IMG/VR virus record: IMGVR_UViG_2579778631_000021 | Length of the DNA: 37,649 nt | Source of the DNA: a virus | Lineage: Duplodnaviria > Heunggongvirae > Uroviricota > Caudoviricetes | Direction: 5' to 3' (one strand) | Shown: piece by piece, positions 1,331 through 37,649 of the stretch | How the letters are laid out: each line of letters starts with the position of its first letter | Numbering within the stretch: position 1 is the first letter of the stretch | Notes under the pieces: model-generated | The model's input: the letters and a program-made list of their open reading frames with translations, nothing else | Databases searched by the model: none | What the model was told of the DNA's origin: nothing | Translations under genes and position numbers: made by a program

Positions 1331-1345
1331 GCTTTTTTATACTAA
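1331..1345. other. attL: attL core (lambda-type overlap region GCTTTTTTATACTAA)
   Basis: Exact lambda att core; left flank GTTGAAGCCT matches the attB B arm, right flank GTTGGCATTATAAAAAAGCATTGCTTATCAATTTGTTGCAACGAACAGGTCACTATCAGTCAAAAT matches the lambda P' arm with Int arm-type sites. Confidence 0.85.
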
Positions 1346-1418
1346 GTTGGCATTATAAAAAAGCATTGCTTATCAATTTGTTGCAACGAACAGGTCACTA
1401 TCAGTCAAAATAAAATCA

Positions 1419-2489
1419 TTATTTGATTTCAATTTTGTCCCACTCCCTGCCTCTGTCATCACGATACTGTGATGCCATGGTGTCCGACTTATGCCCGAGA
1501 AGATGTTGAGCAAACTTATCGCTTATCTGCTTCTCATAGAGTCTTGCAGACAAACTGCGCAACTCGTGAAAGGTAGGCGGATCCCCTTCGAAGGAAAGAC
1601 CTGATGCTTTTCGTGCGCGCATAAAATACCTTGATACTGTGCCGGATGAAAGCGGTTCACGACGAGTAGATGCAATTATGGTTTCTCCGCCAAGAATCTC
1701 TTTGCATTTATCAAGTGTTTCCTTCATTGATATCCCAAGAGCATCAACATGCAATGTTGTTGGGATGGCAATTTTTACGCCGGTTTTGCTTTGCTCGACA
1801 TAAAGATAGCCATCTACGATATCAGACCACTTCATTTCGCATAAATCACCAACTCGCTGCCCGGTAACAACAGCCAGTTCCATTGCAAGTCTAAGCCAAC
1901 ATGGTGATGATTCTGCTGCTTGATAAATTTTCAGGTATTCGTCAGCCGTAAGTCTTGATCTCCTTACCTCTGATTTTGCTGCGCGAGTGGCAGCGACCGG
2001 GTTTGTTGTTATATGGCCTTCAGCTATTGCCTCTCGGAATGCATCGCTCAGTGTTGATCTGATTAACTTGGCTGACGCCGCCTTGCCCTCGTCTATGTAT
2101 CCATTGAGCATTGCCGCAATTTCTTTTGTGGTGATGTCTTCAAGTGGAGCATCAGGCAGACCCCTCCTTATTGCTTTAATTTTGCTCATGTAATTTATGA
2201 GTGTCTTCTGCTTGATTCCTCTGCTGGCGAGGATTTTTTCGTAGCGATCAAGCCATGAATGTAACGTAACAGAATTATCACTGTTGATTCTCGCTGTCAG
2301 AGGCTTGTGTTTGTGTCCTGAAAATAACTCAATGTTGGCCTGTATAGCTTCAGTGATTGCGATTCGCCTGTCTCGGCCTAATCCAAACTCTTTACCCGTC
2401 CTTGGGTCCCTGTAGCAGTAATATCCATTGTTTCTTATATAAAGGTTAGGGGGTAAATCCCGGCGCTCATGACTTCGCCTTCTTCCCAT
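1419..2489 (-). CDS. int: Tyrosine integrase, lambda Int type
   Basis: 356-aa ORF; N-terminal arm-binding region and C-terminal catalytic motifs (HELRSL...LGH...Y); sequence recalled as essentially lambda Int; adjacent to attL. Confidence 0.95.
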   Translation of the reverse strand: MGRRRSHERRDLPPNLYIRNNGYYCYRDPRTGKEFGLGRDRRIAITEAIQANIELFSGHKHKPLTARINSDNSVTLHSWLDRYEKILASRGIKQKTLINYMSKIKAIRRGLPDAPLEDITTKEIAAMLNGYIDEGKAASAKLIRSTLSDAFREAIAEGHITTNPVAATRAAKSEVRRSRLTADEYLKIYQAAESSPCWLRLAMELAVVTGQRVGDLCEMKWSDIVDGYLYVEQSKTGVKIAIPTTLHVDALGISMKETLDKCKEILGGETIIASTRREPLSSGTVSRYFMRARKASGLSFEGDPPTFHELRSLSARLYEKQISDKFAQHLLGHKSDTMASQYRDDRGREWDKIEIK

Positions 2490-2685
2490 TTCTGATCCTC
2501 TTCAAAAGGCTACCTGTTACTGGTCGATTTAAGTCAACCTTTACCGCTGATTCGTGGAACAGATACTCTCTTCCATCCTTAACCGGAGGAGGGAATATCC
2601 TGCATTCGCGCACCCATCGACGAACTGTTTCAAGGCTTCTTGGGCGCCGCTGGCGTGCGTTCCACTCCTGAAGTGTTAAGTACAT
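2467..2685 (-). CDS. xis: Excisionase Xis
   Basis: 72-aa ORF MYLTLQEWNARQRRPRSLETVRRW... overlapping int start, as in lambda. Confidence 0.9.
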   Translation of the reverse strand: MYLTLQEWNARQRRPRSLETVRRWVRECRIFPPPVKDGREYLFHESAVKVDLNRPVTGSLLKRIRNGKKAKS

Positions 2686-2712
2686 CGCAAAGTCTCCGCA
2701 ATTACACGCAAG

Positions 2713-2732
2713 AAAAAACCGCCATCAGGCGG
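2713..2732 (-). terminator. Hairpin CCGCC-ATCA-GGCGG with T-run on minus strand, between small ORF and xis
   Basis: 5-bp GC stem, 4-nt loop, followed on minus strand by TTTTTTCT; stop codon of upstream ORF lies in the loop. Confidence 0.4.
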
Positions 2733-2892
2733 CTTGGTGTTCTTTCAGTTCTTCAATTCGAATATTGGTTACGTCTGCATGTGCTATCTGCGCCCATATC
2801 ATCCAGTGGTCATAGCAGTCGTTGATGTTCTCTGCTTCGATAACTCTGTTGAATGGCTCTCCATTCCATTCACCTGTCACCCGGAAGTGCAT
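2725..2892 (-). CDS. Small hypothetical protein (55 aa), lambda orf55-like position
   Basis: ATG with GGAG SD 8 nt upstream; translation MHFRVTGEWNGEPFNRVIEAENINDCYDHWMIWAQIAHADVTNIRIEELKEHQAA; below the 60-aa cutoff of the ORF track. Confidence 0.5.
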   Translation of the reverse strand: MHFRVTGEWNGEPFNRVIEAENINDCYDHWMIWAQIAHADVTNIRIEELKEHQAA

Positions 2893-2904
2893 TTATCATC
2901 TCCA

Positions 2905-2929
2905 TAAAACAAAACTCGCCGTAGCGAGT
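2905..2929 (-). terminator. Hairpin ACTCGC-CGTA-GCGAGT followed by TTTTGTTTT on minus strand
   Basis: Perfect 6-bp stem, 4-nt loop, T-rich tract abutting the SD of the 55-aa ORF. Confidence 0.45.
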
Positions 2930-2964
2930 TCAGATAAAAGAAATCCCCGCGAATGCGAGGATTG

Positions 2965-3249
2965 TTATTCATTGCCGATATTCACTTTTATCGCGAACAC
3001 CTTTACCGGTTTATCACCGAAGTGCGGATGTGTGATTGTCTTGATTTCATATCCGTCATACGGGACGTCAATTCTTCGGCTGGAATCGTCGCGCTTCGGA
3101 TATCCCTTCGTGATAATCAGGCGGTCATACTCCCGGAACATAATTCGCTTATTCCAGTAGTCATTACACAGGCGATACTCTTCCGTTTTCTCTCCGCGAA
3201 TCATGGCATCGAAGTATTCACCTTTGACAGCAAGTTGCAGGTTAGCCAT
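2965..3249 (-). CDS. Hypothetical protein, possible ASCH/PUA-like domain
   Basis: Start ATG at 3249 (MANLQLAVKGEYFDAMIRGEKTEEYR) with GGAGG SD; G-x-K-x-x-E-x-R motif reminiscent of ASCH; family assignment is a guess. Confidence 0.4.
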   Translation of the reverse strand: MANLQLAVKGEYFDAMIRGEKTEEYRLCNDYWNKRIMFREYDRLIITKGYPKRDDSSRRIDVPYDGYEIKTITHPHFGDKPVKVFAIKVNIGNE

Positions 3250-3509
3250 TACCGCACCTCCAGTCTCCATACCGCCTGACCAATCCGGCTGGCATAGGTA
3301 TCTTTGGATACTGCTCCGTCTTTAGCCAGCTCCATAAGAATTTTGCGCAAATCTGCCGAACGCCATTCTTCATCAGGAAATTCCTTCTCCATTGCCAACC
3401 GCAGATTCCAGGTTGCTATCGTGAATGGATATTCCCCGCCGAGAGCTTTCTCTTGCAGGGCAGCACGGGAACGCATCACCTGCAAAACCTTCTCTTTTAC
3501 ATCCATCAT
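3249..3509 (-). CDS. Hypothetical phage protein (86 aa)
   Basis: Start MMDVKEKVLQ with GGAGG SD; start overlaps stop of upstream gene (ATGA). Confidence 0.4.
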   Translation of the reverse strand: MMDVKEKVLQVMRSRAALQEKALGGEYPFTIATWNLRLAMEKEFPDEEWRSADLRKILMELAKDGAVSKDTYASRIGQAVWRLEVR

Positions 3510-3895
3510 TTTGCCTCCTGCGGCGGTTCTGGTAGCGGCATCCAGTGTGATGGTATCCACGACGCACCAGGTATTACCCACCCATCATTAGCGTCAGGAT
3601 GCCCCGGGATGTAAGTCGCCCATTTCATTCGCCAGTCACCTTTCCTGTCAAACTCCCTGGCAACAAGAACGGCTGTTTTGGTATCCGGCATTCGCTCACT
3701 ACAGCTTATCCAGCCATCCGGAGTTACCGGATAGTTGCCCGACATCTCGTTCAACTTGTAAGTCTGGCTTACAAGTTCGGCTTCCAGCGATGCCAGTGCA
3801 ATCCGTGCCAGTTCCATTTGTTCGCCACGGGTAAGCCCGTTTTCAAGCGGGGATTTAATGAACAATTCGATACGTTCTTTAGTGATAGTGCTCAT
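3506..3895 (-). CDS. DUF551-like phage protein
   Basis: Start MSTITKERIELF with AGGAG SD; C-terminal W-rich segment ending SHWMPLPEPP typical of DUF551. Confidence 0.55.
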   Translation of the reverse strand: MSTITKERIELFIKSPLENGLTRGEQMELARIALASLEAELVSQTYKLNEMSGNYPVTPDGWISCSERMPDTKTAVLVAREFDRKGDWRMKWATYIPGHPDANDGWVIPGASWIPSHWMPLPEPPQEAK

Positions 3896-3896
3896 A

Positions 3897-4451
3897 TCAC
3901 TCTCCTTTGATGCGAATGCCTGCGGCGCGCTCGGCTTCACTTTGTTCCCAAAACCACTTGTGAAGCTCCATAAGCTTTTCGTCAATCGGTGCATATTTGC
4001 GATTAAAGTAGGCCTGAGCATCTTTCTCAGATTCGTCCGGCAATTCGCCAGGGCCAAACAGTGTGTTATAAATCCATGCCAGTCCGCTCTTAGCGTCGCC
4101 AGTTGCCTGCCATTCGATAATGGCAGCCTGCATGACCAGAATGTTTTTCCCGATTAACAGGTCAAGTTCTTTGTACCGGTTGCGGATGTATGCATTCTCG
4201 CTTTGTAATTTTGCGTTGCGCTTCTCTGCTGCTTCCAGCTCAACACGCAGCTTCCCTACCGTTAGCGCAATATCCTCGTTCTCCTGATCGCGGCTTTTGA
4301 TGTATTGCAGGTTTCTTTCCCGTTCATCCAGCATTGCCAGCACAATCGATGGTGTTACCAGCTCATGGAAAAGGTCCGCGTCAAATCCCCAGTCGTCATG
4401 CATTGCCTGCTCTGCCGCCTCACGCAGTGCCTGATGGTCAATTTTGCTCAC
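3897..4451 (-). CDS. Ead/Ea22-like protein
   Basis: 184-aa ORF MSKIDHQALREAAEQA... with central coiled-coil; resembles Ea22-family proteins of lambdoid b2-region; recalled similarity only. Confidence 0.45.
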   Translation of the reverse strand: MSKIDHQALREAAEQAMHDDWGFDADLFHELVTPSIVLAMLDERERNLQYIKSRDQENEDIALTVGKLRVELEAAEKRNAKLQSENAYIRNRYKELDLLIGKNILVMQAAIIEWQATGDAKSGLAWIYNTLFGPGELPDESEKDAQAYFNRKYAPIDEKLMELHKWFWEQSEAERAAGIRIKGE

Positions 4452-4707
4452 TGGCTGCCTCCGCTTCCCACGTTTTCAAACTTTCACCACAGAACGGGCA
4501 AAAGCACATTGCAACGCCACGACCGATATATTTCCCCGAGTGAATTTGAGCAATATCTATGCATGACTCGCCGGTGTTTATGTTCACACGCTCCGGGATA
4601 AATATGCCTTTACTCTTGAATGTTGGATTTCCATATTCGAGAGATTTTGCCAACGCCGCGCACGGTTCTATCTTGTTGCCATTAATTTGGCATTTTGACT
4701 CACTCAC
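4438..4707 (-). CDS. Hypothetical protein with Cys-rich C-terminus (possible zinc ribbon)
   Basis: 89-aa ORF; CFCPFCGESL motif; overlaps neighbours at both ends. Confidence 0.4.
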   Translation of the reverse strand: MSESKCQINGNKIEPCAALAKSLEYGNPTFKSKGIFIPERVNINTGESCIDIAQIHSGKYIGRGVAMCFCPFCGESLKTWEAEAASEQN

Positions 4708-5135
4708 TGGTTGCCTCCTTTGCGAAGCTCAGCGGCGAAGGCTACTGCGTGATCATGATGTTCAAGTGTGTATGCGCACTCAGCAAACATCTCCACGCCC
4801 TGTGCCCGTACATCAGCCAGGAAAGCATCGGTGGCTGGGGTGTCTGATTGCAGAGACTTTGCGCGATAGTCATTCCACCCTCTTGCATACATGGGATTAA
4901 CTTGCACTCCATCTTTTACGCAATATGCCTGACCTCCACGGTTGATAACCTTGATTTCGTCCATTGCGCCAGACTTCATCCCCGCATTCTCCGCTGCCAG
5001 CGCCGCGCACTTGGCCTCCGCTTCAGCAAATTTACGCACCAGATACTCAGCGTTTGTTTCGTTAACCTTTAAATCTCGTGGGATGCATTTACCTTTCAGA
5101 AATCCATCCATCTCAATTAGCGTCATTTGTTTCAT
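4704..5135 (-). CDS. Hypothetical phage protein (143 aa)
   Basis: Start [12 protein letters not shown] overlapping upstream stop (ATGA). Confidence 0.45.
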
Positions 5136-5296
5136 TTCTTCCCACTCCACCACATCGCATTCAGGTATTTGTTTTGATTTACTGATGGAAAAGAATTTCT
5201 CTTAAGCAATTCCTCTCTCGATGGCATTGGCTTTACGCGTTGGCGAATAATCATTTCTGCTGGAAGAATGCCGGGATTGTATGCAAGTCCTCTCAT
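5132..5296 (-). CDS. Small hypothetical protein (54 aa)
   Basis: Start MRGLAYNPG with GAGGA SD; stop overlaps next gene start. Confidence 0.3.
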
Positions 5297-5306
5297 GGTA
5301 AATTCC

Positions 5307-5603
5307 TCAGTCATTACTGATAGCGCCATAGCGTGAGCGGTAATTACGCAGGCGCGGGTCGATATATTCAGGGAAGTGGGTATATGTGGCTTTGCGGAAT
5401 GGTCGGATTGATGTCTGGTAAATTCGCTCGCGTTCTTCTTTCTCTGCAAGCCATATACAATGGCGAAATTCCTTTTCCTCTTTCGTTTCCTGCGGTAGCG
5501 ACATTATCAGGTCGTAGTTTTTCCTGAATTTATCCAGCACCTCCGATACGGAATTGCCGGAACAGCGGCGCGCGTCATCCGCACCATACAAAGGCGCTGG
5601 CAT
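5307..5603 (-). CDS. Hypothetical phage protein (98 aa)
   Basis: ATG with GGAG SD; basic C-terminus. Confidence 0.45.
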
Positions 5604-5619
5604 GTTTTTCTCCGGTTGA

Positions 5620-6168
5620 TTATTTAGCTAACTTTTTCCAGATCGCTGAAACGTATTTGGCTTGGTGGATGGCATCATCAAGCGCGTTGTGGCGAGTTCC
5701 TTTGAATGGCATATCTCGCTTAGGGTCGAATCCTATTACCTTTCCAAGCTCGACGATTGTTCTTACGTCGCGGTCATTCCACCACTGCCACGGAACTGGC
5801 TGCCCTGTCAGCGAATAACTGTTGCGGAGAATAACGCAGTCAAATGATGCTCCATTCCCCAAAACCTGAACGAATTTGTGGTTAGCGTTCTTTATGATGA
5901 ATTCAGATAACCATGAAAGAGCCGTTGAAAGCTCTTGAGTGTTGCTGGTTAGCGATTTTCTGGCTTCTTCACTCTGTTCCATCCACCATAAAATCGTTGA
6001 AGCGTCAGGACGCGCCCGATATCGCATTGATGACTCAAGCGAGATATTTACCGAGAACTCTTCTCCTGTTTCTCCGGTATTCGGGTCAAAGAATACTGCC
6101 CCAATAGAAATAACTGGCGCGTATGGCCCGTTGCCCATTGTTTCAAGGTCAACCATTAAGTGATTCAT
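5620..6168 (-). CDS. DEDDh-type 3'-5' exonuclease (DnaQ-like fold)
   Basis: N-terminal MVDLETMG (Exo I motif), internal and C-terminal acidic/His motifs (HNALDDA). Confidence 0.7.
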   Translation of the reverse strand: MNHLMVDLETMGNGPYAPVISIGAVFFDPNTGETGEEFSVNISLESSMRYRARPDASTILWWMEQSEEARKSLTSNTQELSTALSWLSEFIIKNANHKFVQVLGNGASFDCVILRNSYSLTGQPVPWQWWNDRDVRTIVELGKVIGFDPKRDMPFKGTRHNALDDAIHQAKYVSAIWKKLAK

Positions 6169-6176
6169 GTAAGTCC

Positions 6177-6692
6177 TTAAATTGCGTGAATAGCGTGACG
6201 AGGGAAGGGGAGAGTTACTGGTGCAAAGGGGATTTCATCGTCGAAGTTCATAGGTGGTTCGCCGTAATTCCCATGCTGCTGAGATTGCTGTCTTTGTTGC
6301 TGGCCGTTATTTCGCTGAGGTGAAGACTGTTCATTGCTTCCTTGCTTGCCACCAAGCATTTGCATGGCTCCACCAACGCCCACGATAACTTCTGTAGTGA
6401 ACCGATCCTGTCCGCTTTGATCCTGCCATTTTCTTGTCCGCAATTTGCCTTCAAGATAAACCTCTGAGCCTTTTCGCAGATATTCGCTGGCAATTTCTGC
6501 CAGTTTCCCGCTCATTACCACACGGTGCCACTCCGTCTGCTCCTTTTGCTCTCCAGTTTGCTTATCACGCCATTGTTCTGACGTAGCAACTGTAAGGTTT
6601 GCAAATGCCGTTCCTGATGGTGAATATCTGATTTCTGGATCATGCCCAAGGCGACCAATAATGATCACCTTATTTACGCCTCTGCTTGCCAT
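6177..6692 (-). CDS. ssb: Single-stranded DNA-binding protein
   Basis: OB-fold N-terminus [23 protein letters not shown]..., Gly/Gln-rich linker, acidic DDEIPF tail motif. Confidence 0.9.
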
Positions 6693-7400
6693 TTATGCCG
6701 CCTGTTTTAGCTCGTTAACTCTGATGTTCATTACCTGAACGCATTTAGCCTGCGCCTCCTCGTTTCCAGCCATTAATTGCCAGTCACGCTGATAACGCTC
6801 GATGAGTTTTTTCTTGTCAGTTTCTGTTGACGCATAATCGCTGAAGTCTTTCAGGATTTGTTCGCAGTCAACCGATGGAGATTTCTGGTTGGTATTTTCT
6901 GGTGATGGTTTGTTATCTGATGCTGGGATTGCCCATCCCGGCAGTGATGGAGGGAGCCAGTAAAATCCTGTTCCATCCTTCAGTTTTGCCCTGTGCCACC
7001 CCTGCTTTTTATCGAGAGATGTTTGTGCGAAACCTTCCTCAAGGTTATACAGATACCGACCGATTCCCCACTGAACGGCAGCGCGCTTCATTGCACCGGA
7101 ACGACCACCTTTGACGGCTTCTACCTGCGTGTTTTCAGCAGCATCCCATTTGGTTACCCATTCGGAATCAATCTTTATTGATATGCCGCATTCAACGCCG
7201 CCGTTGTTGGGAATATCGCGGTATTCATTGCGCCATCCTGCTTTGCCGCAAACATCGTCCAGACGTTTCATGATTGCCCGGTTCGTGACATAAGCCAGCA
7301 CCATAGCCCACACTTTGCCATCGCGTGTTTTACCGCTTTGCTGTATTCGCCATTCGATATCTTCAGGGCTGAATGGCTCATCGAATTTATTCAAATCCAT
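6693..7400 (-). CDS. Rad52-like single-strand annealing protein (Sak-type recombinase)
   Basis: 235-aa ORF directly upstream of ssb; recalled resemblance to phage Rad52/22 family annealases; GAGG SD. Confidence 0.6.
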   Translation of the reverse strand: MDLNKFDEPFSPEDIEWRIQQSGKTRDGKVWAMVLAYVTNRAIMKRLDDVCGKAGWRNEYRDIPNNGGVECGISIKIDSEWVTKWDAAENTQVEAVKGGRSGAMKRAAVQWGIGRYLYNLEEGFAQTSLDKKQGWHRAKLKDGTGFYWLPPSLPGWAIPASDNKPSPENTNQKSPSVDCEQILKDFSDYASTETDKKKLIERYQRDWQLMAGNEEAQAKCVQVMNIRVNELKQAA

Positions 7401-7487
7401 AATTCACCTCAGAATGGACACGGCCCAAGGAAATAACGCTGATTTAATACTTCAGTCTTTGCCGCATTTAAAAATACGCGAACACCT

Positions 7488-7658
7488 TCACGATCTCCCT
7501 TCTGGCGATACATTAACGCCTGCTGCGTGTACATGCGTCTCTGTAACTTGCTCTCCTTCACTGTGGTTGCAAGTGACATGAATATCTCCTTCGTTACCGA
7601 TTAATTCTTTCATCTGACGAATGAATTCTTCGTCTGACCAGTTATCTGTAAAACTCAT
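7488..7658 (-). CDS. Small hypothetical protein (56 aa), acidic
   Basis: Start MSFTDNWSDEEF; ATG overlaps stop of upstream small ORF (ATGA). Confidence 0.35.
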   Translation of the reverse strand: MSFTDNWSDEEFIRQMKELIGNEGDIHVTCNHSEGEQVTETHVHAAGVNVSPEGRS

Positions 7659-7807
7659 TTCCTGCGATACCACGGAAGGTTGATAGCTGATTTCATCGCT
7701 TTATTTGCTTCAAGCCACATTTTTGAATCACCAATAAATCTGGCTATTACTGCTTTGTTCTGTGCAGCTCGAAGCATCTGGTGATTAATGGCTATTTCAT
7801 TGCGCAT
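7655..7807 (-). CDS. Small hypothetical protein (50 aa)
   Basis: MRNEIAINHQMLRAAQNKAVIARFIGDSKMWLEANKAMKSAINLPWYRRK; GAGG SD; below ORF-track cutoff. Confidence 0.3.
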   Translation of the reverse strand: MRNEIAINHQMLRAAQNKAVIARFIGDSKMWLEANKAMKSAINLPWYRRK

Positions 7808-7923
7808 AATAAGACCTCAACTCTTTTCCATCCGTCACGTAATTTACGGGTGATTCGTTCAAGTAAAGATTCATTTAGTTGGAAGGCACCCATGCGAGCG
7901 CCTCCCGCGATTGCGTAAATCAT
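7792..7923 (-). CDS. Small hypothetical protein (43 aa)
   Basis: MIYAIAGGARMGAFQLNESLLERITRKLRDGWKRVEVLLCAMK; AAGGAA SD; below ORF-track cutoff. Confidence 0.25.
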   Translation of the reverse strand: MIYAIAGGARMGAFQLNESLLERITRKLRDGWKRVEVLLCAMK

Positions 7924-7947
7924 GGGTGGTTCCTTATGTTGGTTTTA

Positions 7948-8916
7948 TTAGTAGGTTATTTTTGTTGCGAATACTTCGCCTTTTACGATGGCTGTTATGA
8001 TATTTTTAGCAACATCTTCTGATGCACCAACCTTGATAAGGTCAGCAAGTATTTTGTTATTCACTTCTTTCCGGTGAGCTTTATCCTTTGCTCTACGCTC
8101 TTCTTCGTCCTTGATTCTTTTTTCTTCTGCTATTCTGGCTTGCTCTTTTGCTTCAGCCTCGCGACGGATTCGTTCAGCCTCCTCCTGTGCTTTTCTGCGT
8201 TCTGCTTCAATTGCTGCCTGCTTTTCTCTTTCAGCTCGTTCTGCTGCCTCTTTTGCTTCGCGCTGTGCTCGTTGCTCGGCTTCAATGCGTTCACGCTCTG
8301 CACGTTCTGCTGCGGCCTTAGCTTCTGCTTCTCGCCTTGCTGCTGCTTCAATTTCGGCTTTTGCCTTTGCTTCGGCTTCTGCTCTGGCTTTCTCTTCAGC
8401 TTCTCTTTTTAAGCGTTCTTCATGCTCTCGCTTTTCCTGCTCCGCTTTGAGTCTTGCCTCTTCTCTTTGGCGGTCAAATTCGCGATCCATCAAAATAGCT
8501 ATTTCATGGTCAGACTCAATTTGCTTTGCGAGAGCTTCAGCTTCTGCCTTAGCTTCTTCTTCGGCTTTAATCCGCGCCTGTTCTTCCTCATAATCAGTAA
8601 GAGGCTGGCGCGCCTTGGCTTTCAGCTCATCAAGGCGATCGCGCACTGTCTTGCGGTTGGCATCAATTAGCTTTGGAATTTCCTTCAGTTCAGCAACAAG
8701 GTCTTTGCCAAGACCATCGAGATATGTTTTCGTCTGCGCAACTTTATACGCCAGAGAAGCGATCTCCTTTCTGCCCTTTGCCGTTGTGATATCAGGCACA
8801 AAGGACATAACTTCACGTTCAACCTTTTGAAGGATTTCTTCAATCTGGTCGGCAGACTGAAATACAGTCATTGCATTTGCTTTTTCAATAACAACTAAAT
8901 CTGTTACTTCACTCAT
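7948..8916 (-). CDS. Phage protein with long E/A/K/R-rich coiled-coil low-complexity region
   Basis: 322-aa ORF, strong GGAGGA SD; residues about 110-290 are EAKR repeats; function unknown. Confidence 0.5.
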   Translation of the reverse strand: MSEVTDLVVIEKANAMTVFQSADQIEEILQKVEREVMSFVPDITTAKGRKEIASLAYKVAQTKTYLDGLGKDLVAELKEIPKLIDANRKTVRDRLDELKAKARQPLTDYEEEQARIKAEEEAKAEAEALAKQIESDHEIAILMDREFDRQREEARLKAEQEKREHEERLKREAEEKARAEAEAKAKAEIEAAARREAEAKAAAERAERERIEAEQRAQREAKEAAERAEREKQAAIEAERRKAQEEAERIRREAEAKEQARIAEEKRIKDEEERRAKDKAHRKEVNNKILADLIKVGASEDVAKNIITAIVKGEVFATKITY

Positions 8917-8928
8917 ATATCCTCCGTC

Positions 8929-9750: not shown

Positions 9751-9766
9751 TTAGCAAATTAATTTA

Positions 9767-11810: not shown

Positions 11811-11816
11811 TAACAC

Positions 11817-29525: not shown

Positions 29526-30226
29526 TGGCGGATTCATCACTGAATAATCCTGTCGCGGTTCAGGCTACGCGCCTTGATGCTTCAATTTTGCCACGCAATA
29601 TATTCAGCCAGTCTTACCTGCTGTATGTCATTAATCAGGGGGCTGATGTCGGCGCAATTGCCGGGAAGGCAAATCAGGCTGGTCAGGGCGCTTACGATGC
29701 TCAGGTGAAAAACGATGAACAGGATGTCGAACTGGCTGATCACGACGCAAGAATCACCGCAAACACAAAAGCGATAAATCTCCTTGAGGTCAGGTTAACA
29801 ACCGCCGAAGGGAAGATAGTCGTACTGCGTAGCGATGTTGATTACTTGCTGGATGAGGTTATCGATATTCAGGCGCATCTGGTCACTGTTGACCAAAGAC
29901 TGGATGGCGTAGAAAGCGATGTCTCTGGCATTAAGAGTGATTACGTATCGAAAACCGTAACAGAATCGCAGTCTCTTGCGTCACCGCTGGATGTAAAAAC
30001 ATCATATTCAGTTGATGGAATTCAGGTTGTTGGAGCAAGAAATACCGGATGGACTGCAGCCACAGGTACGCCACTTCTTGGCTCATTCAACGCTAACCAG
30101 TCATACACGGTCGGCACTACGTACACACAATCCGAAGTCGCAGCTATCGCTACAGGTTTGGAGCAGGCGCGGCAGCGTATTCTGGCGCTTGAAACAGCAC
30201 TTAGATTACATGGGCTGATTGACTGA
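29525..30226 (+). CDS. Tail needle gp26-like
   Basis: 233 aa [36 protein letters not shown]... with trimeric coiled-coil heptads and conserved C-terminus [17 protein letters not shown]. Confidence 0.9.
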
Positions 30227-30681
30227 TGATTACATTCAAACCAACGCGAAACATCGACCTGATCGAAGCAGTCGGAAATCACCCTGACATTATCGCCGGT
30301 AGCAACAACGGCGATGGATACGACTACAAACCTGAATGCCGTTACTTTGAGGTGAACGTGCACGGGCAGTTCGGCGGAATTGTTTACTATCAGGAGATTC
30401 AGCCGCTGACCTTTGATTGCCACGCCATGTACCTGCCAGAGATTCGCGGATTCAGCAAGGAAATCGGGCTGGCTTTCTGGCGATACATTCTGACTAACAC
30501 CACCGTTCAGTGCGTCACATCGTTCGCTGCACGCAAATTCCGCCACGGGCAGATGTACTGCGCAATGATTGGCCTTAAGCGTGTAGGAACCATCAAGAAA
30601 TACTTCAAAGGCGTGGATGACGTGACGTTTTACAGCGCCACACGCGAAGAACTAATCGACTTCCTGAATAACGGGAGATAG
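30226..30681 (+). CDS. gp14-like ejection/assembly protein
   Basis: 151 aa ORF at the P22 gene 14 position; start overlaps gp26 stop. Confidence 0.7.
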   Translation: MITFKPTRNIDLIEAVGNHPDIIAGSNNGDGYDYKPECRYFEVNVHGQFGGIVYYQEIQPLTFDCHAMYLPEIRGFSKEIGLAFWRYILTNTTVQCVTSFAARKFRHGQMYCAMIGLKRVGTIKKYFKGVDDVTFYSATREELIDFLNNGR

Positions 30682-30683: not shown

Positions 30684-31376
30684 ATGTTATATGCATTTAA
30701 GCTGGGCAGAAAACTGCGCGGCGAGGAACCTTATTGCCCTGAAAAAGGCGGGAAAGGTGGTAGCTCTGATAAAAGCGCAAAGTATGCCGCAGAAGCTCAG
30801 AAGTATGCAGCAGACCTGCAAAATCAGCAGTGGCAGACGATCATGAAAAACCTTGCTCCGTTCACGCCTCTTGCGGAGCAGTATGTTAACCAGCTTCAGA
30901 ACCTTTCCAGTTTAGAAGGTCAGGGGCAGGCACTTAATCAGTATTACAACTCTCAGCAGTATAAAGACCTTGCAGGTCAGGCTCGTTACCAGAGTCTTGC
31001 TGCTGCGGAGGCTACGGGAGGACTTGGTTCGACAGCCACAAGCAATCAACTGGCTACGATCGCGCCGACTCTCGGTCAGTCTTGGTTATCAAACCAGATG
31101 AGCAATTACAACAATCTGGCAAACGTTGGGCTTGGTGCTCTGCAAGGTCAGGCAAACGCCGGGCAGACGTACGCCAACAACATGAGCAGCATTGCACAGC
31201 AAAGCGCAGCTCTTGCCGCTGCTAATGCCAACAAACCATCAAGTCTTCAGACAGCAATTAGTGGCGGAACGTCTGGTGCGATTGCCGGTGCAGGTCTTGC
31301 CAGCCTTTTGGGAACATCAACACCTTGGGGCGCTGGCATTGGTGCTGGTATCGGATTGCTTGGCTCGTTGTTTTAA
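30684..31376 (+). CDS. Ejection protein gp7-like
   Basis: 230 aa with Gln/Ala/Gly-rich region and hydrophobic C-terminus. Confidence 0.8.
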   Translation: MLYAFKLGRKLRGEEPYCPEKGGKGGSSDKSAKYAAEAQKYAADLQNQQWQTIMKNLAPFTPLAEQYVNQLQNLSSLEGQGQALNQYYNSQQYKDLAGQARYQSLAAAEATGGLGSTATSNQLATIAPTLGQSWLSNQMSNYNNLANVGLGALQGQANAGQTYANNMSSIAQQSAALAAANANKPSSLQTAISGGTSGAIAGAGLASLLGTSTPWGAGIGAGIGLLGSLF

Positions 31377-31385: not shown

Positions 31386-32717
31386 ATGGCTACTTGGCAA
31401 GGATCAAATGGCGGATTGTTAGCTGGTATCGGCGGCGTCAACTCAAACGCCCCGAGCGTAAATGACATCGGCAATACGCTTCAGCTTATCAGGCAGAACA
31501 ATGATATTGAGCGTTCAGGCGCTAACAATGTTGGGCTGACTGCTTTGCAAGGTCTTTCAGGTATTGCAGGGGTGTTTCAGCAGGAAAAGCAGGCTCAGCG
31601 GCAGAAAGAATTTCAGCAGGCGTACGCTAATGCTTATGCGTCTGGTGATCGCGGTGCTTTGCGTCAGTTGGCTACTCAATATCCAGACCAGATTGAATCC
31701 GTTCGTAAAGGCATGGGATTCATTGATGAAGATCAGCGTAATTCTATCGGCACCTTAGCGGCTGGCGCACGCCTTGCGTCATCGTCTCCAGAAGCAATGC
31801 AATCATGGCTGCAAAACAACGCCGGTGAGTTAGCTCGTGTTGGCGTTAATCCTCAGGACGTCGCTCAGATGTACCAACAGAACCCGCGGCAGTTCGGCGA
31901 ATTTGTCGATCACCTGGGGATGAACAGTCTCGGACCCGAAAAATACTTTGACCTACAGGATAAAATGCAGGGTCGCCAGGTTACCATGCGCGGTCAGGAC
32001 CTGGATTCGCAAACCGCCGCTCGGAATCAGGCAATCACAATGCGCGGGCAAGATATCCAGGCGAATTTAGGTCAGCAGCGCATTAATCTGGACGCAGAAA
32101 CAAACCGCATTAACAACGAAAATAAGCGCCTTGACCGGATGCTATCAGCAGAAACTAACGACCTGAAGCGCCAGGAAATACAGAGCCGCATAGCAGCCAA
32201 CAACCAGCAGTTGCAGCAGAAGCAGCAAGCGCTAAATGATGGCTACAAAGACGGCATCAACACTCTCACAACAAGCATGTTCACTCTGAACGATATCGTT
32301 AGTTCTCCTTCACTTAAGAGCATTACAGGCTTACGTGGAGTAATCCCCAACGTTCCAGGCTCACAGGCTGCAGACACTCAGGCACGACTTGATACCTTTA
32401 AATCCCAAGCATACCTGACAGCGGTTCAGGCCATGCGAGGCATGGGCGCACTTTCTGATGCCGAGGGCAAAAAGCTCGACCAGGCTGTTGGTTCGCTGCA
32501 GAACTCGCAGAGCGAGGAGTCCTTTCGTCGCAACGCTGGCGTCATCCTGAACACGCTCAACCAGAAGCGTAATGAGGCGGTTGGTAAGTACGTTCAGCAA
32601 AACGGTATCAAGCGAGTGGAAGCGCCTCAGGCTTCTATAGATTACCTGAAGCAGCACCCCGAGCTGTCAATCGACTTCATTAATCGCTACGGATATCTTC
32701 CATCTTTGGGGCAGTAA
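31386..32717 (+). CDS. Ejection protein gp20-like
   Basis: 443 aa at the P22 gene 20 position. Confidence 0.75.
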   Translation: MATWQGSNGGLLAGIGGVNSNAPSVNDIGNTLQLIRQNNDIERSGANNVGLTALQGLSGIAGVFQQEKQAQRQKEFQQAYANAYASGDRGALRQLATQYPDQIESVRKGMGFIDEDQRNSIGTLAAGARLASSSPEAMQSWLQNNAGELARVGVNPQDVAQMYQQNPRQFGEFVDHLGMNSLGPEKYFDLQDKMQGRQVTMRGQDLDSQTAARNQAITMRGQDIQANLGQQRINLDAETNRINNENKRLDRMLSAETNDLKRQEIQSRIAANNQQLQQKQQALNDGYKDGINTLTTSMFTLNDIVSSPSLKSITGLRGVIPNVPGSQAADTQARLDTFKSQAYLTAVQAMRGMGALSDAEGKKLDQAVGSLQNSQSEESFRRNAGVILNTLNQKRNEAVGKYVQQNGIKRVEAPQASIDYLKQHPELSIDFINRYGYLPSLGQ

Positions 32718-35111
32718 ATGGCTAATTACCGTGATTTGTTAGAGCAGGCTGGCGCACGTTACGGTGTGCCAGAAGGGTTGATGACTGCACTGGGTGCCAA
32801 GGAGTCTTCTTACAACCCTGCCGCAGTAAGCTCCGCCGGGGCTGTAGGATTGACTCAGGTCATGCCTGGGACATGGCGTGATATGGGTTATACCGATGAG
32901 CAAATGCAAAACCCCGAATATCAGGCTGACGCTGGCGCGCGCTATCTGGCAAAGATGTACCAGCAGTTTGGTAACTGGCGTGACGCTCTTCAGGCTTATC
33001 ACGACGGTCCCGGCAACGTTATGAAGGCAAAGCGTGGTGAATATACTCCAGGACCTGAAGGCCGCGGTTACGTTGATGATCGCTTTGCTCAATGGGCGGG
33101 TGACCCGGTGACAGACTCAACAGTCGAACAGCGCGCCACCTCTGCAAAGGTACATCCTCAGCAAGACCCTAACAACCCGTTTGCACAACTGGAAGCACAG
33201 TCATCCGAACAAGTATCGGCATCAGGCGTGCAGTCAGACCCAAATAATCCATTTGCTCAGATTGAGCAGCAGGCAGACAGTCAGCAGCCACCTCAACCCG
33301 TAAGTTCTGTCACACCGAAACCTGTTCAGCAGCAAGGCGGAATAATGTCTGACCTTGGTAATGGACTTGCTGAAACCGGGCGCGGCTTACTACAGGCAGG
33401 AATCAACGTAGCGAACATACCTGCTGAACTCACTGATGCTGTAACAAGCGCGGCGGCTTGGGCTGGCGGTAAACTCGGTATTGGCGATGGTACATATCAA
33501 CCAGCACCACGAGTAACAACGCAGGGATTAGAGCAGGACTTTGGCCTTCAGCAAGGCGCGCTGACTCCACAAACGACAGAGGGAAGGGTATTTGCTGAAG
33601 CATTGCCTTACCTCACTCCTGCTGGCGTTGAGAGAACGGCAACACAGGCACCAACACTTGCTGGTCGAATTGCTCATGGGGCAACACGACTTCTCGCAGA
33701 AAACGCAGTTGGATCACTTGCTGCAAATAGTGCGAAAGATGATGCGGAAGCACTCGCCACCGATTTAGGCGTTGGTGTGTTGGCTGGCGGTGCTATTAAC
33801 GCTGCCGGACGTGGATTAGGTGCTGCTTATCGTGGCGTTCGTGGTGCTATTGCGCCAGAAGCGCAGCAGGCTATCAGATTTGCAGAGCGTGAAGGAGTTC
33901 CTCTGCACACCACAGACCTGTTACAGCCTACTTCCCGCGTCGGGAAAATGGCGCAGACTACAGCAGAAAATATCCCCCTGGCTGGCACAAGCGGAATGAG
34001 AGCAACGCAACAGGAAGCGAGAAGTCAGTTGGTGCAGAGATTTGCTGATAAATTCGGCGAGTACGATCCGGCAGTTGTTATTGACAGCCTTAAAGCGAAA
34101 ACATCAGGAATTCGGCGTGCCGCCGGTAATCGACTGGAGCAGGTTCAGAATGCTATGGCGGGAATAAACATTCAGCCTGCAAGAGCAATTCAGCAGATTG
34201 ATACAGAAATATCTAACCTGCAGAAGCTTGGTAAGGTTGCTGATAACGAGACTATTTCAAAACTTCAGTCCTATCGTGATGAGCTTGTTCGCAATGCTGG
34301 TCCTGATGGCCCGGTAAATCTGGATTTGAAGCAATTAAGCGATCTGCGCAGCCAGTTCAGAATGGACGTGAAGGGGGAGCGACCAGTGTTACCAAACCGT
34401 TCCGATGCTGCCATTCAGCGCGTTTACAAGGCGATGACAGACGATATCAATGGTGCCATTGGTCAGAATCTTGGCAACGATACTCTCCGTAAATATCAGC
34501 AGGCCAATGCCGTCTACGCTGACGAAGCGGCGAAACTAAAGAATACCAGGCTGAAGAATGTTCTCATGAAAGGCGACCTGACGCCGGAAGTTGTCAACAA
34601 CATGCTATTCAGCAAGAACAAATCGGAAATTAAGACGCTGTATAACTCAGTTGGTCGTGTTGGCAGGGCGCAAATGCGCAATGGCATCATTGGAAAGGCG
34701 ATGGAGAAATCAGGTGGTTCCCCTGACCAGTTCCTTCGACAGCTTAACATCCTGCAAAACCAGACTGGCATCACATTTAAAGGTCAGGATGCTGCTTATC
34801 TGAAAGGATTGAAAAACTACCTTCAATCCACGCAGCAGGCTGCAAAAGCGGCAGTAACAACACCAACAGGGCAGCAAACCATCCCGTTCATTATCGGATA
34901 TGGGACAGCAATGAACCCTGCGACAACTGGCGCAGCAGTAAGCTACGGACTTCTGACTCGCGCCTATGAGAGCGAGCCATTCAGAAATGCAATGCTCCGA
35001 ATGGCAAACACCCCACGCGGATCAACAGCGTTTGAGAAAGCCATGCAGCAGGCACAAAAGGCCATTAACGCCCTGACTCAGGGGGCTAAGTCTGATGCGT
35101 TGTCAGAATAG
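32718..35111 (+). CDS. Ejection protein at gp16 position with N-terminal soluble lytic transglycosylase (SLT) domain
   Basis: 797 aa; N-terminal KESSYNPAAVSSAGAVGLTQVMPGTW...AYHDGPG matches SLT-domain motifs; remainder is Ala/Gly/Gln-rich. Confidence 0.7.
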   Translation: MANYRDLLEQAGARYGVPEGLMTALGAKESSYNPAAVSSAGAVGLTQVMPGTWRDMGYTDEQMQNPEYQADAGARYLAKMYQQFGNWRDALQAYHDGPGNVMKAKRGEYTPGPEGRGYVDDRFAQWAGDPVTDSTVEQRATSAKVHPQQDPNNPFAQLEAQSSEQVSASGVQSDPNNPFAQIEQQADSQQPPQPVSSVTPKPVQQQGGIMSDLGNGLAETGRGLLQAGINVANIPAELTDAVTSAAAWAGGKLGIGDGTYQPAPRVTTQGLEQDFGLQQGALTPQTTEGRVFAEALPYLTPAGVERTATQAPTLAGRIAHGATRLLAENAVGSLAANSAKDDAEALATDLGVGVLAGGAINAAGRGLGAAYRGVRGAIAPEAQQAIRFAEREGVPLHTTDLLQPTSRVGKMAQTTAENIPLAGTSGMRATQQEARSQLVQRFADKFGEYDPAVVIDSLKAKTSGIRRAAGNRLEQVQNAMAGINIQPARAIQQIDTEISNLQKLGKVADNETISKLQSYRDELVRNAGPDGPVNLDLKQLSDLRSQFRMDVKGERPVLPNRSDAAIQRVYKAMTDDINGAIGQNLGNDTLRKYQQANAVYADEAAKLKNTRLKNVLMKGDLTPEVVNNMLFSKNKSEIKTLYNSVGRVGRAQMRNGIIGKAMEKSGGSPDQFLRQLNILQNQTGITFKGQDAAYLKGLKNYLQSTQQAAKAAVTTPTGQQTIPFIIGYGTAMNPATTGAAVSYGLLTRAYESEPFRNAMLRMANTPRGSTAFEKAMQQAQKAINALTQGAKSDALSE

Positions 35112-35200
35112 CTTCGCAAACACCAGGAACGTGCAAAAACCAAATATGTAGAACGCAATATTCAGCATATCTCTTTGCATATATCCTCCGTAACTGATAG

Positions 35201-35461
35201 TTAGCTGCTGTCTTTTTTATATAGCTCTTTGAGCGTATCAAAGACAATTTTCTTAACCATATCAGATTGTTGTTCTGCCATACGCTCTGCATCGTCAATG
35301 TAAACTGATGCAGAGCTTTGTTTAGCCAATGATTCTTCAATCGCTGCAATTATCTCTGAGTTCAGCGACCTGTTATTCATCTTCGCGCGCTGTTTAATTT
35401 TCGCGTGGAGTTCATGCGGAAGTCTCAAGTGAAACTGCGCCTCGTCGTATTTGCTGTACAT
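35201..35461 (-). CDS. mnt: Mnt-like ribbon-helix-helix repressor
   Basis: 86 aa from MYSKYDEAQFHLRLPHELHAKIKQRAKMNNRSLNSEII...; resembles P22 Mnt (RHH N-terminus, C-terminal DAERMAEQQSDMVKKIVFDTLKELYKK). Confidence 0.75.
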   Translation of the reverse strand: MYSKYDEAQFHLRLPHELHAKIKQRAKMNNRSLNSEIIAAIEESLAKQSSASVYIDDAERMAEQQSDMVKKIVFDTLKELYKKDSS

Positions 35462-35582
35462 CCTTGATGCCTCACCAGTTGGGTGGAATGGCATCGTAAC
35501 CTACTGGATAAATACTCAATAGTACCATTTCGGTATGTAATCATATCATGGTTGCATCATATCATTCGTCTGGAGCAATGAA

Positions 35583-37649
35583 ATGTCAGATATCACCGCA
35601 AATGTTGTGGTAAGCATGCCTTCGCAACTCTTCACTATGGCGCGTTCTTTTAAAGCCGTAGCCAATGGCAAAATTTATATCGGTAAAATTGACACTGACC
35701 CTGTAAATTCTGAAAACCAGATTCAGGTTTATGTGGAGAACGAAGATGGCTCTCACGTTCCTGTATCGCAACCAATCATCATTAACGCTGCTGGTTACCC
35801 GGTATATAACGGACAGATTGCCAAATTCGTTACCGTGCAAGGCCATTCAATTGCTGTTTATGATGCGTATGGTGCGCAGCAGTTCTATTTTCCTAATGTG
35901 CTGAAGTATGACCCTGACCAACTAAGACAGGAGTTAGATGGTGTTGGTGGGGTTAATTTAGTAAATGGGGCATTACATGGTGCCATGGATTCAGATCCAA
36001 ATGTTGGTTTTAAAATCACCACATCCTCAGGTGAGATTTACGAATATGCTCCGGGAATTACAGGTCTTGCCGATGGGTTTTCGGTATCAGCATCACAGTT
36101 ATATTTAACAAGGAATGGCCTATCTTATAAATACTCTTCACCTCATAACACACTGGTTTGGCCATCTCAGTATATCGATACGAGTGCTGATGCGAAATAT
36201 TCAATTGAATCTATTATGGCGCACGGATTGAATGTGGACCTTAACGGAACTACAGTTAAAGCCAGCACCATTAATATTACGAAAGATTTGATTAATGGTG
36301 AAATTGTTGCTATCGGAGATGAAGGATCATTTATAACAGTAAACTCATGCATGCTTAACAATATTAAAGTTAACTGCAATATGATGGCAATTAGAAGGCC
36401 TGTTCATATCAAAACAGGGGCTGTTAATCCAGTAGTTAAGAATGTTGATGTTTTTGATAGTAATGGTTCTCAACTAACTTATGGTATTTTCATAGATGCA
36501 AATTCTGTATTGAATTTTGTCGTTGATAACATATCAATACATAATATTACCACCATTGGAAATGGTATTCAGGGTGATGTAATTGGGCCATGTCGAGGGA
36601 TTCTTGTAGGAACGGCACTTGATCCAGTACCATCAAATGATGATGAGGTATCAAGTGGAGTTATAAGTAACGTAAGGATTTACAAGCTAAACCCTTGGGA
36701 AGATGCTGATGGTGTTGTTATTCAGATTTACAACTCATCATCAAATATGCTCAGCGGGAAGAAAATAAAGGTTGATGGCGTTTATACTTACAATGCACTT
36801 AAGCGAGCAGTCAAAGTTCAGGCCAATGATGTTACAGTAACAAATGTATTTGCGGTTTGTGATGACGCCTCAGCAACTAACCCTATGTATAGTTGTGTTA
36901 GTGTTTATGGTAGTTCCTGTGTTGTTCGTGGTGTTAGTGGGCGAGGAAGGATTGGCAATGGTGTTGATTCATCTGATGGGTTCAATACTATCAGTGATGT
37001 TTATCTTAAGACGACAGCAACCTATGAGCTAAGCGCAGGTCTACAGATAACTTCCGGGCAGGTAAACGCGAATAACATTCACTCTGAAGGATCAAGATAC
37101 ATAGTCGCAATTCGGGCAGTTAATAACACAACACCGTATGTAAATATTAATGGCATATATGGGCAAGGTTATGACGGGGCGATTTTGTTAGAAATCAGAT
37201 ACGGATTTAATATTGGTAATGTTTACTTAAGTGATATTTCAGTATCAAGTTCAAATCCCACAAGGTCTTCATTCTTCTTTGATATATTATCAGGTGGAAG
37301 TATATCTCTGATCAGCGTGTCAGACGTCAAGAGAATCAGTCAGGCATTTAACGGAGCAGATATAAACATTTCTGGTGGGGTTGCAAAAGCTATTGTTAAA
37401 AATTCAGTTTTTGAGAGTGGTTCGTCAAGCGTTGGTGTATCAATGACAACTGGTACTTTAGTTGCATCAAATATATCAGCACAAAGTAAATCTTATGCTG
37501 TCAACGCTGTACAAACCACAAATTCACTTATAAATAACATTGATGGAATCGTTAGGGTTGATAGCACAACCAACAGTAATGTCGGCCTTTACAGAGGGAT
37601 TACCTCTGTTGGGACTAACACAGGACTGAAAACTGTTTTCTATCAATAA
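35583..37649 (+). CDS. Tailspike protein (P22-type head-binding domain + divergent receptor-binding beta-helix)
   Basis: First ~110 aa ([42 protein letters not shown]...VLKYDPDQ) match the conserved P22 gp9 N-terminal domain; remaining ~575 aa is a Ser/Asn/Val/Gly-rich repeat-like domain with lower GC. Confidence 0.9.

Follow-up and report, generated by a model that had tools for sequence, protein, structure and literature searches.

A P22-like prophage carrying lambda-type integration functions at the ybhC/ybhB site of Escherichia coli

Does the attachment site of a lambdoid prophage, or the integrase encoded next to it, tell which kind of virion the prophage specifies? The question is raised by the IMG/VR virus record IMGVR_UViG_2579778631_000021 (Caudoviricetes), a stretch of 37,649 nucleotides (nt) that was analyzed over its full length and is referred to as the window in the following. 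An earlier note on this stretch had described a mosaic prophage in which integration and lysis functions of phage lambda are combined with a P22-like virion module. We compared the window with lambda (NC_001416), P22 (AF217253) and other relatives by local blastn and tblastn and derived an identity profile per 100 bp. The structural genes proved to be P22-like and the int/att region lambda-type, and the breakpoints between segments of different relationship were mapped. The window very probably holds a temperate lambdoid prophage of P22-like (Lederbergvirus) type, 36.3 of its 37.3 kb counted from the left end; this prophage is equipped with Int, Xis and attP of lambda specificity and resides at the ybhC/ybhB site of Escherichia coli. 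Its open reading frames (ORFs), taken from a six-frame list, form a leftward block from about 1400 to 11500 and a rightward block from there to the end of the window. The coordinates of all features are collected in Table 1.

The alignment with lambda sets in with the first nucleotide of the att core (1331, lambda 27724) and continues at 98.2% nt identity (blastn) to position 2968 (lambda 29361), where the lambda-type integration segment stops. The host/phage junction reads ...GAATCCGTTGAAGCCT-GCTTTTTTATACTAA-GTTGGCATTATAAAAAAGCATTGCTTATCAATTTGTTGCAACGAACAGGTCACTATCAGTCAAAATAAAATCATTATTTG..., which corresponds to BOP' (canonical attL sequence: GAAGCCT-GCTTTTTTATACTAA-GTTGGCATTATAAAAAAGC...). 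From the core through the int stop codon, 88 of 88 nt are as in lambda; this interval includes the P' arm, which in lambda carries Int arm-type sites and the IHF H' site. The integrase differs from lambda Int by three substitutions and keeps all catalytic residues (R212, K235, H308, R311, H333, and Y342), and neither Int nor Xis matched a P22 counterpart in tblastn.

The window ends exactly at the stop codon of the tailspike gene, and attR lies beyond it. Searching with the exact tailspike protein led us to contig JICI01000002.1 (GCA_000691065.1; locus L010), which agrees with the final 12,067 nt of the window without a single mismatch. Past the end of the window, this contig carries a gene for a hexapeptide acetyltransferase, then a P arm of lambda with 97.1% identity to lambda 27534-27742, followed by the core, CTTGAGCGAAACG (B'), ybhB, an IS605-family tnpB, bioA, bioBFCD, and uvrB, such that a POB' attR adjoins ybhB. 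Given lambda-type attL and attR at both ends, the prophage therefore has a length of about 37.3 kb. The recombination module of lambda specificity thus appears to be complete, with core, P' arm, int and xis in the window and the P arm with POB' on the identical contig. Both the lambda-like character of attL, int and xis and the location of the prophage in the lambda att site, as proposed in the earlier note, are confirmed by these matches (P' arm 88/88; Int and Xis 99% amino acid (aa) identity each) and by the ybhC and ybhB flanks. The IS605-family OrfB/TnpB gene (376 aa; L010 13751-14881) is situated between ybhB and bioA, outside attR.

In the late region, genes 3-2-1-8-5-4-10-26-14-7-20-16-(mnt)-9 follow the order of P22, in good agreement with the note. 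Each of them reveals a P22 match in tblastn, and all thirteen virion genes are full-length. The description of their sequences as P22-like holds in so far as they are homologous throughout; at the nucleotide level, however, the virion DNA shares no more than about 78% identity with P22 (76-79% by blastn from 20820, upstream of gene 3, to 31531, at the start of gene 20), whereas it is 94-100% identical to phage IME10 in 500-bp windows. The proteins gp3 through gp16 share 97-100% aa identity with this isolated phage, and gp3, gp2, gp1, gp8, and gp5 even 99-100%. Pfam searches on the identical contig add P22_Tail-4, Phage_stabilise, P22_gp7, Inj_translocase, and Phage_P22_gp16. Tail tube, tape measure and sheath genes were found nowhere between the lysis genes and attR, and the tailspike gene is followed by the acetyltransferase gene and attR only. 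The prediction of a short-tailed podovirus virion is well founded, and headful packaging may be expected from the near-identity of gp3, gp2 and gp1 to those of IME10.

Megablast against a phage collection groups both halves of the window with the P22-like coliphages N7, HF4s, mEpX2, IME10, HK620, Sf6, and CUS-3. No single record of this collection covers the left half to 80%, while for the right half only IME10 (two records) exceeds this value, with 86% coverage. Likewise, none of the complete E. coli RefSeq genomes reaches 80% coverage of the first 25 kb. The exact combination of modules is therefore new to the phage and complete E. coli RefSeq collections searched, while each piece has its match there. 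The prophage is an unseen combination of known modules, and as a whole it belongs to a kind that is already known.

The best relatives change between adjoining segments from lambda to HK620, N7, phage 21, and IME10, which bears out the modular exchange invoked in the note. By all appearances, the genome is a patchwork generated by recombination among lambdoid phages, with joints at gene or signal boundaries, e.g., in the T-tract of tR', at the R/Rz junction, and at the end of the tailspike head-binding domain. In the early region, abc2, sieB, cII and nin genes give scattered nt matches to P22 (blastn), and lambda has a few brief matches in the nin and ea segments.

The immunity region is of HK620 type. 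Positions 9771-12237 are 98.7% identical at the nt level to HK620 and HK630, and cI and Cro share 43% and 63% aa identity with their lambda counterparts. The operators (AATACnnnnnGTATT) resemble those of HK620, in contrast to the TATCACCGC type of lambda; individual sites such as GAATACTGTAGGTATTT, AAATACCCGAGGTATTT, and GAATACCTGTAGTATTC are unrelated to the lambda TATCACCGCCAGTGGTA type. Three of the six are identical to HK620 operators and the other three differ by one or two bases, so that the cI/cro operators are indeed not those of lambda, as had been noted. The lambdoid circuit is complete, comprising divergent cI/cro, tripartite OL and OR, N with nutL and nutR, cII, cIII, and Q with a predicted pR' and tR'. 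Its specificities are HK620-type for immunity and 21-type for Q, and none is lambda-type.

Q matches phage 21 Q (PDB 6JNX/6P18) with an E-value of 1e-91 over residues 1-162 and gave no tblastn match to lambda Q or P22 gp23, which confirms its non-lambda nature. It is almost identical to phage 21 Q at residues 1-102, shows about two-thirds identity at residues 103-162, and ends in a C-terminal extension of 10 residues, a pattern that suggests a recombination joint inside Q. The DNA from Q to pR' also occurs in Sf6, where a phage-21-like qut, promoter and terminator are annotated, as well as in CUS-3, HK75, and Huey. Downstream, the predicted tR' hairpin is unlike that of lambda, and lambda identity starts in the T-tract (TTTTTTAT.TGCACAACAGGTAAGAGCATT, compared with lambda 44740-44800). 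Homology restarts at 18189, equivalent to lambda 44776, and extends to 19619 (lambda 46235) with 92.2% nt identity. The first module joint appears to be located in the terminator itself, no more than 20 bp from the site near 18170 that the note had given. The leader from 18189 to S is 95-100% identical to lambda, as expected from its earlier assignment.

For the lysis cassette the earlier reading has to be revised in part. S and R are lambda-like as stated, with 99% aa identity each, and the DNA from 18300 to 19400 is 93-100% identical to lambda per 100-bp window. Identity to lambda amounts to 95-100% at 18300-19000 and 93-97% at 19000-19400; it is then 91% in the interval 19400-19500 and 79% in the interval 19500-19600, and the match breaks off at 19619. 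The interval 19405-19799, on the other hand, is 95.9% identical to P22 gene 15 (Rz), with 95-97% in each 100-bp window. Because lambda identity drops past 19400 while P22 identity is high from 19405 on, the switch from lambda to P22 type is placed at the R/Rz junction, at about 19400, with Rz and Rz1 on the P22-type side. In accordance, Rz has the P22 length of 145 aa (153 aa in lambda), and the claim that Rz/Rz1 are lambda-like is refuted by 59%/40% aa identity to lambda as compared with 91%/96% to P22 gene 15/Rz1. The sharp boundary postulated at 19810-20250 is actually a patchwork. Positions 19800-20027 correspond to neither lambda nor P22 and include an ORF of 50 aa with a 98% identical counterpart in Huey; 20028-20214 and 20242-20493 (ORF80) are 93% and 81% identical to P22, respectively; no P22 match was obtained for about 20494-20819; and from 20820 into the 5' part of gene 3 identity to P22 is 94-99%. 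The arrangement of lambda-type S/R with P22-type Rz is shared by IME10, Huey, and N7. The composite cassette is therefore normal for P22-like phages of E. coli rather than a fresh import from lambda.

Within the patchwork, the match of the 95-aa ORF to PHROG 11049 (182 positions) is restricted to positions 1-94. This ORF lies shortly before the packaging genes and may be what a deletion or a recombination joint has left of a longer gene.

How does this genome relate to characterized phages? IME10 (NC_019501, Lederbergvirus) shares the lysis cassette and the region from gene 3 to the tailspike head-binding domain (94-100% nt, mostly 97-100% aa), the gp16 with an SLT domain, and an immI reduced to mnt, but has an IntS-type integrase (CPS-53/argW type), another repressor, a DnaB-type helicase, another Q, and another tailspike receptor-binding domain (RBD). 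Huey (PQ850609), an isolated temperate Lederbergvirus, has a lambda-type attP including the P arm (from lambda 27534), int (100% aa), xis (99% aa), a Q21-type Q (98% aa), lambda-type S/R with P22-type Rz, and gp10, gp26, gp14, gp7, and gp20 in common with the window. Its terminase, portal, scaffold and coat, in contrast, are of another type within the genus (26-34% aa or no match), and its immunity, replication genes and tailspike likewise differ. HK620 (NC_002730) and HK630 share the region N-hkaS-cI-cro-cII with its operators and nut sites, while HK620 differs in an IntS-type integrase, a lambda-like Q, a Sf6/HK620-type procapsid module, and an O18A1-specific tailspike. P22 agrees in the order from the lysis genes (13/19-equivalent) through 3-...-16-mnt-9, in Rz/Rz1, sieB and the lambdoid architecture; it differs in its integrase acting at thrW, c2 immunity, a lambda-type Q (gp23), the gene 19 lysozyme, a full immI (sieA, mnt, arc, ant), gtrABC, and the more distant virion genes. 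Lambda is 95-100% identical in att core, P' arm, int, xis, orf55, the leader behind tR', S, R, and ninB and uses the same site, but nothing of its cos-packaging siphovirus virion module, its immunity, O/P, Q, or Rz/Rz1 is present here.

The layout as such is not without precedent. In the closed genome of PapM-32-1 (NZ_CP049204), a prophage by ybhC shares the site, lambda-type int/xis, the HK620-type cI region, Q, and P22-type portal, scaffold and coat (97-99% nt), but has another terminase, needle, gp20, tailspike and replication genes, lacks the T5orf172 gene discussed below, and carries tRNA genes after Q (in some relatives tRNA-Asn and tRNA-Thr), whereas a tRNA scan of the window found no tRNA genes. 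Rfam families at gathering thresholds were not matched in the window either. The combination of ybhC, a lambda-type int and P22-type portal/coat also occurs among the listed matches 3CM, MFDS1019527, and fECg99.1. For the P22-like phage phiHS3, lysogen sequencing located the prophage next to ybhC (bioRxiv 10.64898/2026.05.19.726188). P22-like phages constitute a recognized lambdoid branch whose early regions exchange with lambda, HK97, ES18, and others (PMC2629481; PMC11990801). A lambda-type int at ybhC paired with a P22-type virion is thus already known from PapM-32-1, lambda-type attP, int and xis in a P22-like phage from Huey, and a P22-like prophage next to ybhC from phiHS3.

Among the alternatives, a defective (cryptic) prophage that looks complete and yet yields neither excision nor infectious particles survives best, though we consider it improbable. 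Subtle defects are common in prophages, immI is cut down to mnt alone, and an unverified P22 pac sequence had no match in gene 3 with up to 3 mismatches, a result that is uninformative with gp3 at 82% identity to P22. Nevertheless, all expected genes are full-length and equal in size to those of IME10, Huey and N7; neither att site is damaged, the catalytic residues of Int are all present, the size of 37.3 kb is close to that of HK620 (38.3 kb) and Huey (38.6 kb), and the mnt-only arrangement recurs in IME10, PapM-32-1, and KD602. By its sequence, then, the prophage looks intact. Besides the missing pac match, three further points weigh against our interpretation: the activity of the prophage (induction, excision, particles) is predicted from its sequence, pR' and tR' are predictions from consensus and folding, and the placement of attR depends on a contig which is identical over 12 kb and is not the proven source.

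An assembly chimera joining the end of a lambda-like prophage to a P22-like prophage is most unlikely. E. coli E2348/69, whose ybhC flank is identical, does have a siphovirus prophage of lambda type at this attL, whose int/xis reach 98% identity, and draft assemblies can collapse such repeats; but the independent contig L010 ties P22-type late genes and the tailspike to the lambda P arm, attR, ybhB, and bioA, closed genomes such as PapM-32-1 show the same ybhC/lambda-int/P22-virion layout, and Huey packages a complete lambda attP-int-xis in a P22-like genome. A direct hybrid, formed recently from lambda and Salmonella phage P22 themselves, as might be suspected from int/xis and S/R at 99% aa identity to lambda and from Rz/Rz1 and parts of 20800-21100 at 94-99% nt identity to P22, is scarcely credible and is refuted by the identity profile, because the virion genes (36-93% aa to P22) are far closer to IME10, immunity, replication and Q stem from HK620-, N7- and 21-type phages, and the composite S/R-Rz cassette is common property of IME10, Huey, and N7. 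The prophage is thus no "lambda x P22 hybrid" but belongs to the P22-like lineage of E. coli and carries a lambda-type int/att.

If the P22-like prophage is functional, Int and Xis would excise the genome upon induction by recombination of attL with attR. N and subsequently Q would antiterminate transcription, and the late operon would be read from pR' through the lysis, terminase, procapsid, tail-hub, needle, ejection-protein, and tailspike genes. The product would be a headful-packaging short-tailed virion whose tailspike binds an O-antigen.

Typing by integrase or att site would label this prophage "lambda-like" despite its P22-type podovirus genes. In E2348/69 (enteropathogenic E. coli, O127:H6; locus L009), the same attL is occupied by a lambda-type siphovirus prophage with the effector gene nleH beyond the tail genes and int/xis of about 98% identity, and the insertion site is therefore uninformative on virion type. 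Because both int/xis and virion type differ, E2348/69 and the strain of the window carry different phages in one site. E2348/69 as the source, or the prophage described here as a remodeled form of that in E2348/69, is ruled out: the flank is 100% identical, but int/xis diverge by 2% and the rest is lambda-type siphovirus. The value of the locus is mainly illustrative, as a fully mapped case of lambdoid modular exchange; the mosaic itself adds nothing new. Only its cargo deserves attention, namely the T5orf172 protein, hkaS, sieB, the tailspike, and the acetyltransferase.

Table 1. Features of the prophage in the window (positions refer to the window; aa, nt: amino acid and nucleotide identity).
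Feature	Position	Strand	Basis or remarks
ybhC (host, 427 aa)	1-1284	-	gal-proximal side of lambda attB; 1-1345 100% identical to E. coli E2348/69, annotated ybhC there
attL core GCTTTTTTATACTAA (O of BOP'), 15 bp	1331-1345	.	read directly; lambda alignment begins at 1331 = lambda 27724
lambda P' arm	1346-1418	.	1331-1418 = lambda 27724-27811, 88/88 identical
lambda-type integrase, 356 aa	1419-2489	-	99% aa to lambda Int; Pfam Arm-DNA-bind_1, Phage_integrase
lambda-type excisionase Xis, 72 aa	2467-2685	-	99% aa to lambda, 1 substitution; Pfam Exc
lambda orf55 (lambdap35) homologue	2725-2892	-	100% aa; P22 match partial, 68% over 25/55 aa
early-left accessory and recombination genes	2965-8916	-	tblastn vs P22, IME10, Huey, N7; Pfam; PHROGs; ORF translations; PapM-32-1 annotation
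DUF551 gene	3506-4057	-	within early-left block
Ea22-like gene	3897-4451	-	within early-left block
abc2	5307-5603	-	within early-left block
Rv2179c-like 3'-5' exonuclease	5620-6168	-	between abc2 and ssb
ssb	6177-6692	-	within early-left block
erf	6693-7400	-	within early-left block
kil	7655-7807	-	within early-left block
cIII	7792-7923	-	within early-left block
coiled-coil "TolA-like" protein gene	7948-8916	-	within early-left block
sieB superinfection-exclusion gene, 193 aa	9169-9750	+	85% aa to P22 SieB
HK620-type immunity region	9767-12197	.	coordinates carried over from HK620 annotation; Pfam Cro, Peptidase_S24 with HTH_3, N_peptide
N	9767-10039	-	HK620 annotation transfer
nutL	~10147-10188		HK620 annotation transfer
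OL1-3	10235-10298		HK620 annotation transfer
hkaS	10407-10775	-	HK620 annotation transfer
cI	10793-11509	-	HK620 annotation transfer
OR3-1	11520-11585		HK620 annotation transfer
cro	11616-11810	+	HK620 annotation transfer
nutR	~11817-11862		HK620 annotation transfer
cII	11919-12197	+	HK620 annotation transfer
T5orf172/MUG113-domain gene, 214 aa	12232-12876	+	between cII and O; Pfam; candidate moron or defence gene
replication module	12830-14553	+	Pfam Phage_rep_O, IstB_IS21; N7-type
O-like initiator	ORF 12830-13705, true start probably ~12872	+	94% aa to phage N7
ori iterons, three x 24 bp	13237-13308		tandem repeat search; inside O-like gene
DnaC/IstB-like helicase loader	13690-14553	+	99% aa to phage N7
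nin region: 96-aa ORF, ninB, Dam-type methyltransferase, ninE, ninX, ninF, 70-aa ORF, DUF1364, rusA, ninH	14550-17621	+	tblastn vs lambda, P22, IME10, N7; N7, HK620, PapM-32-1 annotations
late antiterminator Q, phage-21 type, 172 aa	17618-18136	+	Pfam Phage_antitermQ
predicted pR' (TTGACA, 18 nt spacer, CATAAT)	18114-18143	+	promoter scan, 11/12 consensus matches
predicted tR' hairpin, non-lambda	18152-18190, T-tract to 18198	+	fold -20.2 kcal/mol, z-score -3.3
holin S, lambda-type	18591-18914	+	99% aa to lambda, 1 substitution; 90% to P22
transglycosylase R, lambda-type	18898-19374	+	99% aa to lambda, 2 substitutions; no P22 match
P22-type spanin Rz, 145 aa	19371-19808	+	91% aa to P22, 59% to lambda; Pfam Phage_lysis
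Rz1 embedded in Rz	ORF 19543-19755, lipoprotein start probably 19570	+	Cys in ...LGVSAC; 96% aa to P22, 40% to lambda
50-aa ORF	19796-19948	+	tblastn, PHROGs
P22 ORF80 homologue	20256-20498	+	tblastn, PHROGs
95-aa ORF	20502-20789	+	tblastn, PHROGs
59-aa ORF	20799-20978	+	tblastn, PHROGs
gp3 small terminase	21002-21490	+	82% aa to P22; Pfam GP3_package
gp2 large terminase	21468-22967	+	93% aa to P22; Pfam Terminase_6N/6C
gp1 portal	22968-25133	+	78% aa to P22; Pfam P22_portal
gp8 scaffold	25147-26058	+	85% aa to P22
gp5 coat	26058-27353	+	73% aa to P22; Pfam P22_CoatProtein
small ORF	27398-27628	+	gene call in L010
gp4	27606-28106	+	59% aa to P22
gp10	28107-29525	+	93% aa to P22
gp26 needle	29525-30226	+	62% aa to P22
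gp14	30226-30681	+	93% aa to P22
gp7	30684-31376	+	83% aa to P22
gp20	31386-32717	+	43% aa to P22
gp16, N-terminal SLT domain	32718-35111	+	36% aa to P22
Mnt-like ribbon-helix-helix repressor	35201-35461	-	Pfam Arc, Repressor_Mnt; 49% aa to P22 Mnt; gene call in L010
tailspike gp9, complete, 688 aa	35583-37649	+	ORF including stop codon; Pfam Head_binding; P22-type head-binding domain aa 1-113; divergent beta-helix RBD

The T5orf172 (GIY-YIG-like) protein matches the PADLOC profile PDC-S57 (E 6e-29), in the N-terminal half of the profile only, and also the T5orf172 domain of PD-Lambda-1. Its gene is missing from lambda, P22, IME10, Huey, N7, and HK620, while it is 98% identical at the nt level in CurroJimenez_Bas106. 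PADLOC was applied to ten accessory proteins and recognized only this gene and, weakly, the exonuclease as a DEDDh match; hkaS, sieB, the TolA-like protein, and the small ORFs of the ea region remained without a match in this search. The exonuclease gene, in the recombination module, is assigned to an Rv2179c-like 3'-5' exoribonuclease/DEDDh family (E 1e-71). It is present in the PapM-32-1 prophage and has no counterpart in lambda, P22, IME10, Huey, or N7.

In lambda, rexAB is located immediately downstream of cI. hkaS takes this position and is for this reason presumably expressed from the prophage. It encodes 122-129 aa directly downstream of cI, belongs to PHROG 6534 of unknown function, and has no match in Pfam or PADLOC.

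The tailspike consists of a conserved N-terminus and a divergent remainder. The N-terminus shares 72% aa identity with P22 and 88-96% with P22-like phages of E. coli, and the head-binding region is 70% identical to P22 at the nt level. The match to IME10 is limited to the N-terminal ~129 residues (88%). For the RBD, the nearest phage relative is the tailspike of Shigella boydii phage Gloob (51% aa). The RBD-coding part (35985-37649, aa ~135-688), in which G+C falls to 0.38, occurs in one of 5426 closed genomes (KD602), and the exact tailspike protein was found in approximately 298 index blocks of draft assemblies. In every locus shown (L008, L010-L015), the tailspike gene is followed by an antisense gene for a hexapeptide acetyltransferase of 183 aa. 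In L010 the two genes are linked with lambda attP/int, in KD602 and L011-L015 with an IntS-type integrase gene by yfdC; in KD602 the integrase is annotated intS and adjoins a tRNA-Arg gene. The distribution suggests a mobile tailspike-plus-conversion cassette that moves between P22-like phages with lambda-int and those with IntS-type integrases. That the T5orf172 gene serves as a prophage-encoded anti-phage defence and, at the same time, the tailspike RBD and the acetyltransferase form a matched cassette for O-antigen recognition and conversion is a joint reading which we put forward tentatively and consider rather doubtful as a whole.

The mnt-like gene is the sole remnant of immI, as arc, ant and sieA are absent. 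It is situated 121 bp upstream of the tailspike gene and divergent from it. A gene of the Mnt/Arc family directly upstream of the tailspike, without arc or ant in between, is likewise found in IME10, PapM-32-1, and KD602. The orphan repressor might target a tailspike-proximal promoter; a search for inverted repeats in the spacer between mnt and the tailspike gene gave nothing convincing as a Mnt operator.

The gp16 homologue comprises 797 aa with an SLT lytic transglycosylase domain at aa 7-110, while P22 gp16 has 609 aa and is matched over residues ~138-601 only. IME10 has this protein at 99% identity, and annotations of many E. coli prophages label it "lytic transglycosylase domain-containing protein".

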